DNA from: Escherichia coli
Lineage (GTDB): Bacteria > Pseudomonadota > Gammaproteobacteria > Enterobacterales > Enterobacteriaceae
Reading direction: 5' to 3' (one strand)
NCBI RefSeq assembly: GCF_003019035.1
Contig: NZ_CP027447.1
DNA: 64,000 nucleotides
Part shown: in pieces, positions 27,356 through 58,204 of the stretch
Layout: every line of letters starts with the position of its first letter
Numbering within the stretch: position 1 is the first letter of the stretch
The notes under the pieces: generated by a model
Databases searched by the model: none
What the model saw: only the letters and a program-made list of their open reading frames with translations
Told to the model about the DNA's origin: nothing
Position numbers and translations under genes: made by a program

Positions 27356-29125
27356 TCAGTTGCCGTTAACAATGCTGATAACGCTGCTGCGGGCCGGCGT
27401 GGTCAGCGTGGCCATGACTTCATCCAGTGCGGCTTCCGGTACGCCGTCCGGGTACTGTGCCGTTAACTGGCGGTAATGTTCCGGCGTCCAGGTAAGGCCG
27501 TCGGCGCTGAACTTATCGCGCAGGGCTTTCGCGGCCTCCACATGAGTCATGGGACGTTGTTCAGTGCGCGGTCTGCGTACATCAGAGGCCTGACCGCGCT
27601 TCGGTATACAGGCCGGAAGTGTGGCGTCATCAATATGTTTATACGGGTCAAGCCGCCCGCCGAACGGCAGCGCCTTCGCCTTGCGTGCGGCAGCTGCATC
27701 TGCGGCGTTGTCTGTACCGGTGACCAGCGCTTCGGTTTCTTTTGCCGCCGTCTGTGCCGGTGTTTCCGGCAGGGCTTTGTAACTTTCGCCAAATACCGCC
27801 GCGCCTTCAGCAAAGCCAAACTCGTTCTTTCTGACCTCTTCGACCAGGAAGAACGTCTCGTGGCCGTCCTCACCGGTCAGAACCACCTGTGCCACATCGC
27901 TGCGCCATGGGTTACGGGTAATCATCAGTTTTTCACCAACCAGTACGCCCGGTACCGTTGATACGTCAAATTCAGTGCCCCGGAACGAGACACGAAGTTT
28001 TGGCGTGACTTTGCGGAGTTCTGGTGTCGTCACAGCCAGTTCACGGCATACCTCAACGGAAGGCGCTTTTTTCAGCTGCTCAGCAGTAATCTTCAGCCAG
28101 ATATCCGTGCGGGTTTTACCGTGGCGGCTGTGAACAGCTGTTGCGTTAAAGTGGCTACGCCATTTCGCGGCCAGCGCGTTGAGTTCTTCCAGACTGTGAA
28201 CCGGCCGGAACTTCAGACCCGGCTCCAGCTTGCGTTCGATAATGTCACGCGCCTTTTCCACCTGTCCGGTGGCGCGGGCGTTATGCGGCTTGTGCGCTAT
28301 CAGGTCGATGCCCAGTGAGCGGCACATGTTTTTCGTCATACCCGCGGTGTTTGCCGAGCCGGGGTCGAGATAGAGTATTTTCGGCACGCCGTGCAGCACG
28401 TCTGCGCCGCCACGCTCCTGCATGGCGTTGATAAGCACAGAACACAGGTTCTCACCGGATTCCGCACCCGTCACATACTCAACGTAAATCCAGCCGCTGG
28501 CATGGTCGGTAATCTCGTAACTCCACACGCGGTCACTGGCGATACGGGCAAGGTTAGCGGGCTTGTTCTTGTAGAACTTCGCGCTGTCCATCACCTGCAG
28601 CCCTTTGTGTCCATTGCTCAGGTAGTAAAGCGTGCAGAGAGAGGCATCAATCTGCCAGACATGATTGGGATGCAGACTGGCCACTTCGGTATGCGGCGCA
28701 GGGGCATCCAGTTGTTCCGGGTGCAGGCCATAGTTACGCAGGGCACGGCTGATAGCATCTTCGGACAACGGGAAAAACTCACCGGTGGTTTCATCTGTTC
28801 TGCCTGCGGAGATAAAGCCGTTAGCCCGCAGGGTTTCCACTGCATCTGCGATGGAATAGAGACGCTTACCGTTCTTGCGGGTGGCCTCACGTAGTGTGGC
28901 AGATATCAGCGCGGCTTCGTCGCGGGTCAGGGCGCTGCGCCCGGCATCGGCGCGTTTTTTGCGTTTATCAGTCACAGAGACCTCCTTCAGCCTGCGCAGC
29001 AGAGTGGCGCGGGACATGCCAAGTTCAGCACAGGCGGCGTCATATATTGCACCACGTTTACCATGCCCCGCGTCACGTGCCGCGCGGGCGACATAAACCA
29101 GTCGTTCAGTCAGGGCAGCATTCAT
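27356..29125 (-). CDS. DDE transposase (Mu A-like)
   Basis: 589 aa; N-terminal HTH-like region, integrase-core motifs (HVWQIDAS, YLDPGSANT). Confidence 0.8.
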   Translation of the reverse strand: MNAALTERLVYVARAARDAGHGKRGAIYDAACAELGMSRATLLRRLKEVSVTDKRKKRADAGRSALTRDEAALISATLREATRKNGKRLYSIADAVETLRANGFISAGRTDETTGEFFPLSEDAISRALRNYGLHPEQLDAPAPHTEVASLHPNHVWQIDASLCTLYYLSNGHKGLQVMDSAKFYKNKPANLARIASDRVWSYEITDHASGWIYVEYVTGAESGENLCSVLINAMQERGGADVLHGVPKILYLDPGSANTAGMTKNMCRSLGIDLIAHKPHNARATGQVEKARDIIERKLEPGLKFRPVHSLEELNALAAKWRSHFNATAVHSRHGKTRTDIWLKITAEQLKKAPSVEVCRELAVTTPELRKVTPKLRVSFRGTEFDVSTVPGVLVGEKLMITRNPWRSDVAQVVLTGEDGHETFFLVEEVRKNEFGFAEGAAVFGESYKALPETPAQTAAKETEALVTGTDNAADAAAARKAKALPFGGRLDPYKHIDDATLPACIPKRGQASDVRRPRTEQRPMTHVEAAKALRDKFSADGLTWTPEHYRQLTAQYPDGVPEAALDEVMATLTTPARSSVISIVNGN

Positions 29126-36866: not shown

Positions 36867-38179
36867 CAGCGGCCATTCAGCTGTATCCCTATCAGCAGTC
36901 GTGGTTTCTGGATCGTGCCCGTTTCAAGATTGGTATGTTTGCCCGTCAGACGGGCAAGACGTTCACCACCACGCTGGAACTGGTTGATGACTGTTTTGAA
37001 ACGGAGGCCTCAGGGGGACGTACACGCTGGGTGATCCTCTCGCGCGGGGAGCGTCAGGCAAAAGAAGCCATGGTGGAGGGGGTGAAAAAACACTGCAGCG
37101 CCTACCGGATGGCGGCCCGTGAGGTGGAAAGTTATTACCGTGCTGAAAGCGGCGAACGCTACACCATGCTTGAGGTGGAGTTACCCGGCGGCTCCCGTAT
37201 CACGGCCCTGCCGGCGAATCCCGACACGGCTCGTGGGTTTGCGGCTAACGTCTTTCTGGATGAGTTCGCCTTCCATGCCGACAGTCGCAAAATCTGGACC
37301 GCTCTGTTTCCGGTCATTTCCAACGGCTACAGACTGCGTGTGACATCGACACCGAACGGCAAGGGAAACAAGTTTTATGAACTGATGACCAGCAACGCCC
37401 TTGAAAATGTCTGGTCACGTCACATCGTGGATATTTACCGTGCCGTGCGTGATGGTCTGCCGCGGGATATTGCACAGATGCGACAGGCGCTCAACGATGA
37501 TGACGCCTGGGCACAGGAGTTTGAACTGAAGTGGCTGGATGAGGCATCGGCCTGGCTGACGTTTGAACTGATTGACGGCGTGGAGCACGATGCTGCCGGG
37601 CTGCCGGTGCACTATACGGGTGGCCCCTGCTTTGTGGGGGTGGATATTGCTGTTCGTAATGACCTGTTTGTCATCTGGGTGCTTGAACAGGTGGGGGATG
37701 TCTACTGGACCCGGGAAATCATCACCCGTAAACGGGCCACCTTTGCTGAGCAGGATGCTTTGCTGGATGACGTATTTTTCCGTTACCGCGTGCTGCGCTG
37801 CTGTATGGATCAGACCGGGATGGGAGAAAAGCCGGTGGAGGATGCACAGGGTCGCCATGGCAGAAGCCGTGTGGAGGGGGTGATATTTAACAGCCCGAAC
37901 AAGCTCACCCTCGCGACCCGTGGCAGGGAGATGTTTGAGGACCGCCGCCTGCGTATTCCGGCGGGAGATGTGGTCCTGCGCAGTGATCTGCATAAACTTC
38001 GCAAGGTTACCGGGCCTACCGGAACTCCCCGCTTTGTGGCCGAAAGTGATGCAGCAGGTCACGCCGACCGCACATGGGCCTGTTTTCTGGCAATAAACGC
38101 CACTGACGGACCGTCAGGGCCGGTGATGGCCCGTTCGCGTCACCGCCGTGAGGCTGGTCATATACTGGAGGGATTCTGA
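36863..38179 (+). CDS. Terminase large subunit (Mu gp28-like)
   Basis: 438 aa; Walker A-like FARQTGKTF; nuclease-like C-terminus. Confidence 0.8.
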   Translation: MTAAIQLYPYQQSWFLDRARFKIGMFARQTGKTFTTTLELVDDCFETEASGGRTRWVILSRGERQAKEAMVEGVKKHCSAYRMAAREVESYYRAESGERYTMLEVELPGGSRITALPANPDTARGFAANVFLDEFAFHADSRKIWTALFPVISNGYRLRVTSTPNGKGNKFYELMTSNALENVWSRHIVDIYRAVRDGLPRDIAQMRQALNDDDAWAQEFELKWLDEASAWLTFELIDGVEHDAAGLPVHYTGGPCFVGVDIAVRNDLFVIWVLEQVGDVYWTREIITRKRATFAEQDALLDDVFFRYRVLRCCMDQTGMGEKPVEDAQGRHGRSRVEGVIFNSPNKLTLATRGREMFEDRRLRIPAGDVVLRSDLHKLRKVTGPTGTPRFVAESDAAGHADRTWACFLAINATDGPSGPVMARSRHRREAGHILEGF

Positions 38180-39675
38180 TGGCGAGGGGTATCTGGGTTT
38201 CACCCGATGAATTTGTTGCTTTTTCTGAGCCTCAGAAATCACTGACCGCGCAGATTGCCTCCCGCAGCCGCGCGATCGACTTTTACGGACTGGGCATGTA
38301 TCTGCCCAATCCTGATCCCATTCTCAAGGCTCAGGGACGGGATATCCGTATCTACCGCGAACTGCGCACCGACCCGCTGGTCGGGGGCTGTATCCGCAGA
38401 CGTAAAGCAGCGCTCAAATCGCTGGAGCGTGGACTGGAGCGCGGTCACGCTTCTGCCCGGGTCTTCCGTTTCATCCGCGACATGCTCGACGATCTGGATC
38501 TGTCCCGCATCATCGGTGAGATGAGCGATGCCGTGCTCTACGGGTATCAGCCCTGTGAAATCATGTGGGGCCGTTCGGTCAGGGCGTGGGCGGTGACGGA
38601 TATTGTCGGCAAACCGCCTGAGTGGTTTCAGTTTGATACGGACAACTGCCTGCGCTTCCGGGCGCGTGATGCGGGTGTGGAGGGTGAGCTGCTGTCACCG
38701 TCAAAATTCGTGGTGCCGGCACAGGATGCCTCGTATGACAATCCTTACGGTTTCCCTGACCTGTCCATGTGCTTCTGGCCGGTCGCCTTCAAGAAAGGCG
38801 GGATGAAATTCTGGCTCCGCTTTGCCGAAAAGTTTGGCTCCCCATGGGTGATCGGTAAGCACCCGAGGGGTGCAAATGATGCAGAGATTGAAAAACTGCT
38901 GGACTCCATGGAGCAGATGGTGGAGGACGCGGTGGCCGCCATCCCTGATGACAGCAGCATCGAACTCAAAGCAGCGGATGGCAAGGCGGACAGCAGCGAG
39001 GTATTCCGCGAGCTGATCACACTGTCACGCAGTGAGATCTCCATTGCATTACTCGGTCAGAATCAGACCACGGAAGCGAACAGTAACAAGGCCTCTGCAC
39101 AGGCCGGGCTGGAGGTGACGGCTGATATCCGCGATGCGGATGCGGACATCATTCAGGCGGCAGTGAATCAGGTCATAAGAACGGTGGTCACCCTGAACTT
39201 CGGCGATGTGCCGTGTCCGGTCTGGGCCATGTGGGAACAGGAGGCCATTGATGACACCCGTGCCACCCGCGACGAAAAACTCACCCGGGCGGGTCTGCGT
39301 CTGACCCCGCAATACTTCAAGCGTGAGTACCAGCTGCAGGACGGCGATATTGACGAGACACCACCGTCAGAACGCGAGAAGAACATGCTGCCGCTGTCAT
39401 TTGCCGAGGCGATTGATGCCGATATTCAGGCTCAACAGCAGCTTGACGACGCGCTGGACATTCTGATGAACGGAGGTGTGTTAAATGGCACGCTGGAACC
39501 CGTCCTGGCACCTCTGTTTAAGCGGGTCGAAAACGGGGTTAACCCGTCTGAGCTGCTGGGCGAACTGGCGGAGCTCTACCCTCAGATGAACACGGACGAT
39601 CTGCAGGAACGGCTGGCCCGCATTCTCTTTGTGGCAAATATCCGGGGGCGTCTGCATGAGCGTGACAACGGCTGA
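38179..39675 (+). CDS. Portal protein (Mu gp29-like)
   Basis: 498 aa directly after the terminase; Mu-like head gene order. Confidence 0.75.
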   Translation: MARGIWVSPDEFVAFSEPQKSLTAQIASRSRAIDFYGLGMYLPNPDPILKAQGRDIRIYRELRTDPLVGGCIRRRKAALKSLERGLERGHASARVFRFIRDMLDDLDLSRIIGEMSDAVLYGYQPCEIMWGRSVRAWAVTDIVGKPPEWFQFDTDNCLRFRARDAGVEGELLSPSKFVVPAQDASYDNPYGFPDLSMCFWPVAFKKGGMKFWLRFAEKFGSPWVIGKHPRGANDAEIEKLLDSMEQMVEDAVAAIPDDSSIELKAADGKADSSEVFRELITLSRSEISIALLGQNQTTEANSNKASAQAGLEVTADIRDADADIIQAAVNQVIRTVVTLNFGDVPCPVWAMWEQEAIDDTRATRDEKLTRAGLRLTPQYFKREYQLQDGDIDETPPSEREKNMLPLSFAEAIDADIQAQQQLDDALDILMNGGVLNGTLEPVLAPLFKRVENGVNPSELLGELAELYPQMNTDDLQERLARILFVANIRGRLHERDNG

Positions 39676-54876: not shown

Positions 54877-55845
54877 ATGGCAAATCTACCCGAAACCCCG
54901 CAGTGGGAAAGCGGCATCTACCAGATTGAGGTCTCTGACCCCGTTCTGGGCGGACCTGACGGAATTTCTAACCGCCAGGCTAAACAACTGGCCAGCCGAA
55001 CGTCATACCTCAAACAGAAGGTCGAAAAAAGCGGAACAGACCTGGCTGCACATATCGCGGCAGTTGACCCGCATACCCAGTACGCGACGAAAGCCAGTCC
55101 GACATTCACCGGCACACCAACAGCACCTACACCTGCAAATGGTGATAACAGCAAAAAGCTGGCGACGACGGAGTTTGTGGCCAAAGCACTTGCGGCACTT
55201 GCAGGCAGCGCCCCTGAGACACTGGATACGCTTAAAGAGCTGGCTGACGCTCTCGGTAATGATCCAAACTTTGCGACTACGGTACTGAACAAGCTGGCGG
55301 AAAAGCTGGCTAAAGACCAGAACGGCGCAGATATTCCTGAGCCTGCGCTGTTTGTCAAAAACCTTGGTTTGGGGGAAGGCTCTGCACTGCCCGTTGGTGT
55401 GCCCGTTCCGTGGCCCTTAGCAACACCACCAACGGGCTGGCTGAAATGTAACGGTGCAGCATTTTCTTCTGAAATGTACCCCAAACTGGCAAAAGCCTAC
55501 CCCGCGAATAAATTACCGGATTTACGCGGAGAATTTATCCGTGGCTGGGATGATGGGCGAGGAATTGATGCGGCACGCGCTTTATTGAGCATTCAAAACG
55601 GGATGTTGGAAAAACACCGCCATATTGTTGTAGCTAACGATGGATATGACACAAAAGATGAATGGGAGTTGGCTACGATTTTCAAAAAAACATATACACA
55701 AGGCAGGGGGCTTGATGCCACAAATACAGGAGGGAGTTTGACTCCATCACCAACGCTTCATTCACGAGGAAGTATTGGTAACACAGGTGGTAGTGAAACC
55801 CGCCCCCGCAATATTGCATTTAACTATATCGTGAGGGCGGCTTAG
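54877..55845 (+). CDS. Tail fibre protein (constant N-terminus plus invertible C-terminal variant 1)
   Basis: 322 aa; tail-collar-like domain (GWLKCNGAAFSSEMYPKLAKAY...LPDLRGEFIRGWDDGRGID); C-terminal part lies inside the invertible segment. Confidence 0.8.
   Translation: MANLPETPQWESGIYQIEVSDPVLGGPDGISNRQAKQLASRTSYLKQKVEKSGTDLAAHIAAVDPHTQYATKASPTFTGTPTAPTPANGDNSKKLATTEFVAKALAALAGSAPETLDTLKELADALGNDPNFATTVLNKLAEKLAKDQNGADIPEPALFVKNLGLGEGSALPVGVPVPWPLATPPTGWLKCNGAAFSSEMYPKLAKAYPANKLPDLRGEFIRGWDDGRGIDAARALLSIQNGMLEKHRHIVVANDGYDTKDEWELATIFKKTYTQGRGLDATNTGGSLTPSPTLHSRGSIGNTGGSETRPRNIAFNYIVRAA
55352..55377. other. Left invertase crossover site (gix/hix-like)
   Basis: TTGTCAAAAACC-TT-GGTTTGGGGGAA; outer half-site matches the Hin/Gin half-site TTATCAAAAACC. 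Confidence 0.7.
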
Positions 55846-55851
55846 TTATAT

Positions 55852-56469
55852 TCAACTGGCTGCTGCCAGAGGCATTTCCGGCCAGTTGATATCCGGTGCA
55901 GTGCTGATGTCAGTCGCATTAAGCACATCTATGAAATCAAGCACGGCGTTTAGTTTTTCCGTCTCCTGGGGCGTCAATCGGCGTCCGGCTCGTAGTTTGA
56001 GATTTATAAGCTCAACAGATGCCATTGCCTGTTCCTCAAGTTGCTGACGATGCACTCCGGCAGCTTCCAGTTCTGCTGCGTGCTGTCGTCCCGCATCTGT
56101 CACCCAGGTCTCACCATCCCAGACATCATAGATAGTAGCTGGCTGTTTCACCGTCGTATCAGGAGGGTAATCTCCCGGTTGTGTGATTTGCACAGCGTTA
56201 CCATTCTCTGTGCTGTAAACCGTTTCGCCTCTGTGGTCTGGAACATATTTCCAGATGTTCTGGTCGGTATCACGACAGACAGCGAAGCCGGGGCGTTTTT
56301 CTGGTGGCGCGTCAATGCATGAGTGAGCCGGAATTCCAACACCATAAGCGAGATACTCAACAGTGGCAGAGAGATATTCACGGTTTTCAGCATCGTAGTT
56401 ATAAACGGTAATATCGCCTGCAGTTATAGCGATACCATTCTGATCAAGTACTGCAGCAGCATTATTCAT
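55852..56469 (-). CDS. Tail fibre assembly protein (Tfa)
   Basis: 205 aa; C-terminal TDISTAPDINWPEMP resembles the Tfa motif DTSTAPDIEWP. Confidence 0.8.
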   Translation of the reverse strand: MNNAAAVLDQNGIAITAGDITVYNYDAENREYLSATVEYLAYGVGIPAHSCIDAPPEKRPGFAVCRDTDQNIWKYVPDHRGETVYSTENGNAVQITQPGDYPPDTTVKQPATIYDVWDGETWVTDAGRQHAAELEAAGVHRQQLEEQAMASVELINLKLRAGRRLTPQETEKLNAVLDFIDVLNATDISTAPDINWPEMPLAAAS

Positions 56470-56966
56470 TAAGTAGCCCTTACAATATAGTTAAACGCAA
56501 TATTACGGGGGCGGTTTTCCGTTCCTGTATTCCCTCCGTTGGCACCTAATCTATAAACACCACGAGTGCCAATAGCACGTAGTGAAGATGGAACTTTTAC
56601 ACCTGACTCATCTGTTTTAACAATCCCGCCATCACCGTATGTAGCCAGTATACCAGGGTTTGTTCCTGCACGGGTGCTATTTGCGGCAAGCCCTTCACCA
56701 GTCCATAACTCCATATAGTGAATATGATCTATAACCGAATGTGATTGTGCATTAAGCAAGGAACGCCCTGAATCAATTCCCCGCCCGTCATCCCAGCCGC
56801 GAATAAACTCACCCCGTAAATCCGGTAATTTATTCGCGGGGTAGGCTTTTGCCAGTTTGGGGTACATTTCAGAAGAAAATGCTGCACCGTTACATTTCAG
56901 CCACCCTGCTGGCGGTGTGGCTGAGGGCCACGGAACGGGCACACCAACGGGCAGTGCAGAGCCTTC
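56469..56966 (-). CDS. Alternative tail-fibre C-terminal cassette (expressed after inversion)
   Basis: Encodes the same tail-collar region (GEGSALPVGVPVPWP...RGWDDGRGID) followed by a different C-terminus. Confidence 0.7.
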   Translation of the reverse strand, partial: EGSALPVGVPVPWPSATPPAGWLKCNGAAFSSEMYPKLAKAYPANKLPDLRGEFIRGWDDGRGIDSGRSLLNAQSHSVIDHIHYMELWTGEGLAANSTRAGTNPGILATYGDGGIVKTDESGVKVPSSLRAIGTRGVYRLGANGGNTGTENRPRNIAFNYIVRAT

Positions 56967-56978
56967 CCCCAAACCAAC
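56953..56978. other. Right invertase crossover site (gix/hix-like)
   Basis: TTCCCCCAAACC-AA-CGTTTTCGTCTT; inner half-site is the inverted copy of the left inner half-site. Confidence 0.7.
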
Positions 56979-57043
56979 GTTTTCGTCTTAACTCCCACCT
57001 ATACCAGCTATGTATTTTTAACAAAACAAAGAGGATATTTTTC

Positions 57044-57616
57044 ATGCAAATTGGCTACATTCGTGTGTCAACAAATGACCAGAATACAGATTTACAACGA
57101 AACGCACTGAACTGCGCAGGATGTGAACTGATTTTTGAGGATAAAATCAGCGGAACAAAGTCAGCCCGACCGGGATTGAAAAAGCTGCTCAGAACGTTAT
57201 CAGAAGGAGATACGCTCGTTGTCTGGAAGCTGGACAGGCTGGGCAGAAGCATGAAACACCTCATCACTCTTATTGAGGAACTGCGGGAAAAAGGGGTTAA
57301 CTTCCGTAGTCTTACAGACAGCATTGATACGTCAACACCCATGGGACGTTTCTTTTTTCACGTCATGGGGGCTTTAGCGGAAATGGAGCGTGAATTAATA
57401 GTTGAACGAACACTGGCCGGACTTGAAGCAGCACGTGCACAGGGGCGTATTGGTGGACGTCGTCCGAAACTGACAAAAGAGCAACATGAACAAATAGCAA
57501 GGCTGATCAAAAATGGCTATAGCAGGAAACAGTTGGCAATTATTTACGATATCGGTATATCGACGATTTATCGTTATCACCCTGTAGAGGAACTTCAAAC
57601 TCAAGCTGAGTTGTAA
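57044..57616 (+). CDS. gin: Serine DNA invertase (Gin/Hin/Pin family)
   Basis: MQIGYIRVSTNDQNTDLQRNAL... with catalytic Ser in the YIRVST motif and C-terminal HTH; AAGAGGA RBS. Confidence 0.9.
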   Translation: MQIGYIRVSTNDQNTDLQRNALNCAGCELIFEDKISGTKSARPGLKKLLRTLSEGDTLVVWKLDRLGRSMKHLITLIEELREKGVNFRSLTDSIDTSTPMGRFFFHVMGALAEMERELIVERTLAGLEAARAQGRIGGRRPKLTKEQHEQIARLIKNGYSRKQLAIIYDIGISTIYRYHPVEELQTQAEL

Positions 57617-57651: not shown

Positions 57652-57694
57652 ATTTATCTCACGGAAATAGGTACGTTTATCGCGCGGCGCATCA
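57652..57694. repeat. Right prophage end with putative transposase-binding repeat
   Basis: ATTTATCTCA (inverse of TGAGATAAAT) 33 bp inside the terminus, symmetric with the left end; terminus ...GCGCATCA. Confidence 0.6.
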
Positions 57695-57700
57695 ATTCCT
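57695..57700. repeat. Right target-site duplication (ATTCCT; 5 or 6 bp)
   Basis: Identical to 21435..21440. Confidence 0.7.
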
Positions 57701-58204
57701 TTGTAAATCCAGCAAATCATCAATGCCAGTTTCACTTGCGGTATAAAAACTATCGGACTGAAAAACACACGGGCGACCTTGCTGATTAAAGGTCATCAGA
57801 ATCAAAAACGCGTTAGGTGCCAGACCATTTCCTGAAATACCCCGCCAGATAACCAGATCCTGAATGCCGTTACGATCAAGATCGGCACGGTAAAGTTGCG
57901 CATTACCCGCCATATTTTGCAGCACCCCCACAGGCACAGACCAGGATTTACCGGCGCGATCTTTACCGTTCAATTGCCATTCACTATCATCATTTGGCAT
58001 CTTTTCAAGCGTCACGCCAGCAACGCCGACTTTTCTAAAATGCCAGGTTTGCTCGGCATCATAAGGCATGGTCAGGAGAGGTTTCAGCGCCCGCTTTTGC
58101 GCGTATTCGCTGTCACTCATCGGCAGATATTCGGTAAAGCTGGTGGCCTGTGCAGGCAGCACTAAGCTCAATAAAAAAGCGCACATCCCTGTTCTGATGT
58201 TCAA
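57696..58204 (-). pseudogene. N-terminal fragment of the host ORF split by the prophage (signal-peptide protein)
   Basis: Signal-peptide-like N-terminus (MCAFLLSLVLPAQA); terminated by a TGA formed by the prophage's last 3 bp; in frame with 21171..21434. Confidence 0.7.

Follow-up and report, generated by a model that had tools for sequence, protein, structure and literature searches.

A conserved C-terminal motif on two divergent, invertase-switched tail fibre cassettes of an Escherichia coli prophage: probable closing β-strand of the tail-collar domain

Why do two alternative tail fibre ends with divergent receptor-binding regions finish in the same residues? The question was raised by an invertible fibre region in a stretch of 64,000 nt of Escherichia coli DNA (contig NZ_CP027447.1, assembly GCF_003019035.1), called the window here. 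The earlier note on this DNA had proposed that the conserved extreme C-terminus might be the docking site for a single shared Tfa, which would explain why one tfa suffices. The analysis points to another answer: the motif core RPRNIAFNYIVRA is very probably the β-strand that closes the phage tail-collar domain. As such, the shared ending is a commonplace mark of this fold and gives no grounds for assuming that a chaperone docks there.

The fibre gene was preceded by P2/Mu-type baseplate genes V, W, J and I, and the prophage, which adjoined hycI, was of the Mu-like transposable kind (rve transposase, Portal_Mu). The features of the region are given in Table 1. A Pfam Collar domain (PF07484) was found at aa 174-221 of the fibre ORF, and both cassettes carried the collar N-terminal segment (P-x-G...W...LPDLRG; Pfam Collar E 1e-13 for the fused cassette and 2e-14 for the silent one). 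Each arm of the 212-nt inverted repeat began with a 26-bp crossover site. The two sites agreed with the published consensus and with the site of EC958 Phi2; the right half-site GGTTTGGGGGAA listed for the invertible segment of E. coli EC958 Phi2 was identical to that of the window (PMC4134206). In 15 related loci the junction crossover sequence likewise stood where the constant part of the fibre meets the variable part, and the invertase-side boundary sequence was found in 14 related loci. The region belongs to the invertible fibre segments of Gin/Min type and lies in a Mu-like prophage; it adds one more member to a known class, that of collar-type fibre tips switched by an invertase.

Table 1. 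Positions of the features of the invertible fibre region (numbered from the first nucleotide of the window).
Feature	Position	Strand	Remarks
26-bp invertase crossover site TTGTCAAAAACCTTGGTTTGGGGGAA	55352-55377	+	Junction of constant and variable parts; pattern scan
Tail fibre gene, present state	54877-55845	+	322-aa ORF; constant part to ~55365, fused to collar cassette GGSET159
212-nt inverted repeat, left arm	55358-55569	+	Collar N-part GLGEGSALPVGVPVPWP...DLRGEFIRGWDDGRGID; 93% complementary
Collar cassette GGSET159 (cassette 1)	55366-55845	+	Currently fused to the constant part of the fibre
HxH motif H-R-H (putative metal-binding)	55615-55623	+	Variable insert of cassette 1; read from sequence
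Motif copy 1, codons for RPRNIAFNYIVRA	55801-55839	+	Stop codon at 55843-55845
tfa, single copy	55852-56469	-	Lambda-Tfa type, 205 aa; in the present state it runs towards the fibre gene (convergent)
Silent alternative collar cassette TGTEN168 (cassette 2)	56469-56975	-	ORF; Pfam Collar E 2e-14
Motif copy 2, codons for RPRNIAFNYIVRA	56475-56513	-	Read from sequence
HxH motif H-I-H (putative metal-binding)	56718-56726	-	Variable insert of cassette 2; read from sequence
212-nt inverted repeat, right arm	56772-56983	-	Collar N-part of cassette 2 (TGTEN168)
Second 26-bp crossover site AAGACGAAAACGTTGGTTTGGGGGAA, inverted	56964-56989	-	Boundary on the invertase side; pattern scan
Serine DNA invertase, Gin/Cin/Pin/Hin family	57044-57616	+	Outside the invertible segment; Pfam Resolvase E 1.7e-51, HTH_7 E 1.3e-13

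The variable inserts carried an HxH motif each, and HxH was kept in the consensus of an alignment of 71 sequences. In gp37-type tips, HxH motifs coordinate metal (PMC12609058); both window cassettes resembled tail-collar tips in this respect, and their HxH was read as a putative metal-binding motif. The tfa product matched Pfam Caudo_TAP (PF02413; E 2.5e-25, residues 80-200), with precomputed hits to PF28596 Caudo_TAP_N and PF02413, and the conserved C-terminal PF02413 domain ending in ...TAPDI-WP was present. Along its whole length it was 33% identical to lambda Tfa (E 1e-30), and it had no sequence match among solved chains. The stop codon of TGTEN168 overlapped the start of tfa (TAATG), and the V-R-A codons of motif copy 2 (GTA AGG GCT) made up an AAGGG Shine-Dalgarno sequence 7 nt ahead of the tfa ATG. 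A TGT-N12-ACA palindrome at 57011-57028, similar to P2 Ogr-type sites, was considered as a sign of a tfa promoter that would act in either orientation of the segment, and was rejected: 13 such palindromes were found in the window vs. 15 expected, and the prophage was Mu-like rather than P2-like.

The plus-strand fibre ORF ended in ...GGSETRPRNIAFNYIVRAA and the minus-strand cassette ORF in ...TGTENRPRNIAFNYIVRAT, in both cases directly before the stop codon. The near identity of the last ~15 residues described in the earlier note was borne out: the core was the same at 13/13 residues, and 14/17 of the last 17 residues were identical. The divergence that it had reported for the receptor-binding regions was found as well, with identity between the two cassettes in 66/70 residues of the collar N-part and in only 21/87 aligned columns of the middle. 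The DNA identity of the endings, put at ~80% in that note, was measured as 86% complementarity over two inverted arms of 50 nt obtained from a repeat search (55795-55844 and 56470-56519). The span that it had given for the similarity (55790-56525) reached from the first motif copy to the second and took in tfa, which lies between them. For one random pair of 50-mers the chance of at least 43 matches is ~4e-18, and ~5e6 pairs are possible in the region; a chance origin of the arm similarity is negligible.

The 13 core codons of copy 1 and copy 2 differed by 5 synonymous and 0 non-synonymous changes. In 19 distinct cassette tails from related loci, each core codon was represented by 2-4 synonymous codons, and the amino acid was fixed except for I/V and A/T. 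Because the codons varied synonymously while the peptide stayed fixed, the similarity reflects purifying selection on the peptide, and not merely recent DNA copying. The final Arg codon was always AGA or AGG in those tails, a hint of some constraint on the last codons at the level of nucleotides.

The cassette family comprised 12,962 cluster representatives at E ≤ 1e-3. The motif was the C-terminal end in 118 of the best 150 of these, with ~8 more one-residue variants, and the remainder of the 150 looked like fragments or frameshifts. Close E. coli homologues (88-100% identical) added no diversity; it was supplied by the search of representatives. Conserved positions in the 71-sequence alignment were limited to 10-72 and 147-159, and RPRNIAFNYIVRAA was near-invariant across the inspected representatives of less than 50% identity. 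By tblastn, the motif was present in 867 phage records, Klebsiella, Ralstonia and Synechococcus phages included.

Proteins of well-known phages ended in the same way. The ending of T4 gp37 was ...TENTVKNIAFNYIVRLA (phmmer against PDB sequences), that of T4 gp12 was given as ...GNETRPWNISLNYIIK, ...ETRPWNISLNYIIK or ETRPWNISLNYIIKA, and that of lambda Stf was ...KNIAFNYIVRLA, with tfa overlapping the Stf stop codon. RB43 gp12 ended in ...ETRMKNLAINYVIRVR and was followed by wac. The collar protein of cyanophage ME01 ended in ...EARPRNIALLYCIKF; the genes downstream of it were without Pfam match, and none was Tfa-like by Pfam. T4 gp12 requires gp57A, and not gp38 or Tfa (PMC3004832). Internal copies of the motif occurred in tandem-collar proteins (P0129, P0183 and PDB 9cuy). 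As the motif was present in gp12 and the cyanophage protein without Tfa, and also at internal positions, Tfa and a free C-terminus are both dispensable for its conservation. Alignment with other tail-collar fibres had been named in the earlier note as a check on the docking site; the motif was present in those fibres, but equally where there was no Tfa.

What the motif does in these proteins was suggested by the solved structures. The PDB sequences matched by the cassettes with phmmer included 2xgf, 1ocy and 9cuy. On the 2xgf chain, the cassette N-part aligned with residues 27-105 (gp37 ~811-889); the motif aligned with residues 219-242 (gp37 ~1003-1026). Both pieces were also seen in gp12. 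The gp37 collar domain D10 is made of residues 811-881 plus 1010-1026, with the needle inserted into it, and has the gp12 collar fold (PMC6957217); the chain of gp37-type tips doubles back to the collar (PMC12609058). The return-strand pattern N-[IVL]-[AS]-x-N-Y-[IV]-[IV]-[RK] was present in the cassettes and aligned with the ends of gp37, gp12 and lambda Stf. By analogy with these tips, the motif would stand at the proximal collar, which is closed by the C-terminus, and not at the distal tip (PMC6957217, PMC12609058).

An AF2 model, built with the 71-sequence alignment, agreed with this placement. In the model, which was a single chain though the real protein is a trimer, the collar N-part had a pLDDT of 91-96 and the insert a pLDDT of 39-50 (low confidence), and the motif was predicted as a strand (E153-158, pLDDT 87); all other strands were in the N-part. 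When the N-part was deleted in silico, the motif had a pLDDT of ~60 and was modelled as a helix. The best Foldseek match was 2xgf_A (probability 1.00, E 1e-6), and gp12 chains were matched with probabilities of 0.84-0.95. That the strand pairs with the N-part in the window protein is inferred from DSSP, pLDDT and the homologous crystal structures. The motif was conserved more strictly than a typical edge strand, so that a further constraint, for instance from contacts within the trimer or from recognition by a chaperone, may act on it as well.

Each cassette would then be a complete tip module. Its ~70 N-terminal residues would form most of the collar, the chain would leave the collar into the variable, HxH-containing receptor-binding insert, and it would then double back, so that the last ~15 residues complete the collar sheet beside the N-part. 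The serine invertase would exchange entire collar modules on a fibre shaft that stays the same. As the two collar halves must fit each other and the trimer, both would be kept constant while the insert diverges freely; this constraint on the collar halves would be the reason why interchangeable cassettes share the first ~70 residues, with the crossover site, and the last 13.

Related E. coli genomes and viral contigs had 2-7 collar cassettes permuted around a single tfa. The earlier observation of a single tfa at the locus was therefore also the rule among its relatives. Except for two frameshifted copies, each cassette of the related loci began at a crossover site and ended in RPRN[IV][AT]FNYIVR[AT][ATV]. 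TGTEN168 was directly upstream of tfa in all loci examined but one (L003), where a diverged cassette took its place; it was fused to the fibre in locus L014 and co-oriented with tfa in locus L028. Loci L002 and L028 encoded identical proteins in two arrangements that were one inversion apart, and WP_074157625.1 stood as the fibre protein in the expressed position both in the isomer with tfa in antisense (L002) and in the isomer with tfa in sense (L028). Of the complete E. coli genomes retrieved with two junction queries, 7 had tfa in antisense to the fibre and 8 had it in sense. The isomers in other genomes show the switch to be live and unbiased. An orientation bias that had appeared in the first 17 loci (antisense in 15) was rejected on the counts from complete genomes, and the apparent excess was due to sampling. 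A P1-like phage (L024) had six cassette matches broken up by frameshifts, and was unusable as a Min-type comparison.

Three other explanations of the shared ending or of the single tfa were weighed. Where cassettes stood in tandem, the following 26-bp crossover site overlapped the stop codon of the cassette before it and the two codons ahead of that stop, the last Arg was AGR-only, and the two conserved stretches bounding the cassettes would favour modular exchange; all this would suit a similarity that is a DNA feature, be it homology at the flanks that serves gene conversion or the exchange of cassettes, or a lengthened recombination site. The overlap, however, was limited to the last ~7 nt, a pattern scan of the window gave no crossover site after either motif copy, and the peptide was conserved in distant phages with unrelated DNA. 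The synonymous variation of all core codons around a fixed peptide largely refutes an origin at the DNA level, which is highly improbable. A putative handle for one lambda-type Tfa across cassettes, formed by the conserved C-terminus alone or within the collar surface, is unlikely, though several observations pointed towards it. One tfa accompanied 2-7 motif-ended collar cassettes in all related loci, and non-collar alternative cassettes with different endings (L020, L023) brought their own, different Tfa of 147 aa. The Tfa N-domain was 58-60% identical where the adjoining fibre inserts were unalignable. A lambda-type Tfa is thus plausibly matched to the conserved collar module and not to the variable insert. 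Lambda Stf had the same collar and ending with tfa over its stop, and the homology between the window Tfa and lambda Tfa extended over the full length. Moreover, lambda Tfa can substitute for gp38 with gp37 (PMC9659904), and gp38 was long ago proposed to gather C-terminal ends (PMC3004832). Set against these, the motif was conserved equally in gp12 and the cyanophage collar protein without Tfa and at internal positions, solved Tfa-fibre complexes have Tfa on the distal moiety and not at the proximal end (PMC9608196), a sigma-70 scan of the minus strand gave no candidate promoter for tfa, and GGSET159, which is joined to the fibre shaft in the window, was convergent with tfa there and in every related locus examined. 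The proposal of the earlier note thus stood as to one tfa per collar set, but not as to Tfa being required to account for the conserved ending. The handle does not conflict with the structural explanation and might come as a second role beside it.

As GGSET159 was always convergent with tfa, it never shares a fibre transcript with tfa, and the sharing of Tfa is itself unproven. The same orientation would suit a Tfa that serves only the translationally coupled TGTEN168, the other collar cassettes folding without it; the single tfa would then reflect need and not sharing. The position of tfa directly after TGTEN168 (or its diverged equivalent in L003), the stop/start overlap and the Shine-Dalgarno sequence within the motif codons are consistent with such a restriction, as are the presence of WP_074157625.1 as the expressed fibre protein in both the antisense and the sense isomer and the example of gp12, a collar tip that folds without Tfa. 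In the multi-cassette isomer L028, however, tfa was in sense downstream of other expressed cassettes, which makes sharing possible, and collar fibres in non-invertible contexts usually adjoined a Tfa (L019, phage Dina, lambda). A Tfa restricted to TGTEN168 is fairly unlikely. It may tentatively be proposed, with rather little confidence, that the collar, N-part and C-terminal strand together, is a universal handle for lambda-type Tfa; in a sharper variant, the insert would set Tfa dependence, and some cassettes, such as GGSET159, would fold without Tfa. This extra role is possible, and is unneeded to account for the conservation. If true, it would explain a single tfa with up to seven cassettes and a separate Tfa for non-collar cassettes, and one chaperone could fold any insert placed between conserved collar halves.

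With the closing strand as the preferred reading, the locus calls for caution, for a conserved tail on divergent tips resembles a binding site and would here be half of a split structural domain. The conserved collar halves would mark out the unit that is exchanged when host range is switched. The cut made by inversion falls exactly where the collar starts, and the motif forms the end of the module, which may be useful for the design of chimeric fibres. Loci with several cassettes and a single tfa would be a good natural test set for Tfa sharing and for the contact surface.

Among known systems, the T4 gp37 tip (PDB 2XGF) and lambda Stf were like the window in having a collar N-part, one or more HxH motifs, a chain that doubles back, an ending of the ...KNIAFNYIVRLA type and a chaperone gene immediately downstream, which in lambda overlaps the stop codon as it does in the window. 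The inserts differed: those of the window had ~75-95 residues and one HxH, and that of gp37 is a needle of ~130 residues with seven HxH. Unlike those of gp37 and Stf, the window modules were invertible cassettes, and T4 uses gp38 and not a PF02413 Tfa. T4 gp12 (PDB 1OCY, 1H6W/5LYE) likewise had a collar domain with one HxH-type insert of about the same size, and ended in ...ETRPWNISLNYIIK, but it is a baseplate-bound short fibre that depends on gp57A without Tfa or gp38 and has no inversion system.

In the organisation of the switch, the window resembled Mu G/Gin, P1 C/Cin, e14 P/Pin, p15B Min and EC958 Phi2, all with an adjoining serine invertase and inverted 26-bp sites at the junction. Mu, P1 and e14 have two mirror-image pairs of fibre end and tfa, an arrangement also given in the EC958 figure legend; the window, unlike these, had a single central tfa between convergent cassettes. 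The relatives of the window carried many cassettes, in which they were like p15B Min. The EC958 Phi2 cassettes are described with tail-collar domains (PMC4134206), as found in the window. In the complex of Mu Tfa with its fibre (PDB 5YVQ) and in Pam3 gp24-gp25, the chaperone has a variable fibre-binding N-domain and a conserved, trimerising helical C-domain (PMC9608196). The window Tfa, with its conserved PF02413 C-domain, was alike in this logic to the chaperones of Mu and Pam3; the fibres of Mu and Pam3, unlike those of the window, are not of the collar type, and their chaperone caps the distal tip.

In some proteins, several modules of the collar domain (PF07484) stood in tandem, and every module was closed by its own internal copy of the motif, the C-terminal closing strand of that domain (Table). 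The last Arg of the motif was encoded by AGA or AGG in all 19 distinct tails, and its other two Arg always by CGY. Within the cassette upstream of tfa, the single lambda-type tail fibre assembly gene, GTA AGG GCT formed an AAGGG Shine-Dalgarno sequence 7 nt 5' of the tfa ATG.

GGSET159, the cassette at present fused to the fibre, was convergent with tfa in the window, as in all the related loci inspected, and therefore the two could never be co-transcribed. Either GGSET159 folds independently of Tfa, or tfa has a promoter that escaped detection. Mixed invertible segments were found in two related loci (L020 and L023), with a collar cassette and a 200-aa lambda-type Tfa on the first side, and a non-collar (gp53-like) cassette ending in ...SALIIGR with its own 147-aa Tfa on the second. 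These segments suggest that each tip fold is paired with one Tfa type.

Coordinates of features in the window, in related loci and in tandem-collar proteins
Feature	Source	Position	Strand
Mu-like prophage around the fibre locus	window	22000-57616	
rve transposase (Mu-like prophage)	window	27359-29125	-
Portal_Mu (Mu-like prophage)	window	38179-39672	
Invertible fibre region	window	55352-56989	
GGSET159	window	55366-55845	+
Motif-end codons	window	55831-55842	+
tfa	window	55852-56469	-
Motif-end codons	window	56472-56483	-
TGT-N12-ACA palindrome	window	57011-57028	
170-aa ORF	window	57692-58204	-
Crossover site overlapping cassette end	L001 (related prophage; equivalents in other tandem arrays)	2052-2077	
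Mixed invertible segment	L020	1-2324	
Mixed invertible segment	L023	1501-3804	
Motif copies	P0129 (tandem-collar protein)	268, 556 of 570	
Motif copies	P0183 (tandem-collar protein)	452, 812 of 977	
Motif copy	PDB 9cuy	about 303 of 554	

The element around the fibre locus was a Mu-like transposable prophage, which also carried sheath, tape measure and P2/Mu baseplate genes; its insertion adjoined the hyc operon, and the same insertion was present in related locus L010. Between the invertase gene and hycI, the 170-aa ORF had a signal-peptide-like N-terminus (MNIRTGMCAFLLSLVLPAQA...), and could belong either to the host or, as cargo, to the prophage. The stretch separating the crossover site from the start codon of the invertase gene held a perfect TGT-N12-ACA palindrome (TGTATTTTTAACAAAACA); this pattern showed no enrichment across the window (13 occurrences vs 15 expected).

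Related E. coli prophages (L001-L018, L028), relatives of the invertible region, carried 2-7 collar cassettes each, of about nine recurring types, and cassette order around one tfa was permuted between them. L002 and L028 encoded identical proteins as two isomers, one inversion apart. Where cassettes stood in tandem arrays, each following cassette had its 26-bp crossover site overlapping the final two codons and stop codon of the one before it (GCG GCA TAG AAACGTTGGTTTGGGGGAA), and the left half-site therefore moves with the end of that preceding cassette. The permuted arrays resemble a Min/shufflon-like multiple inversion system.
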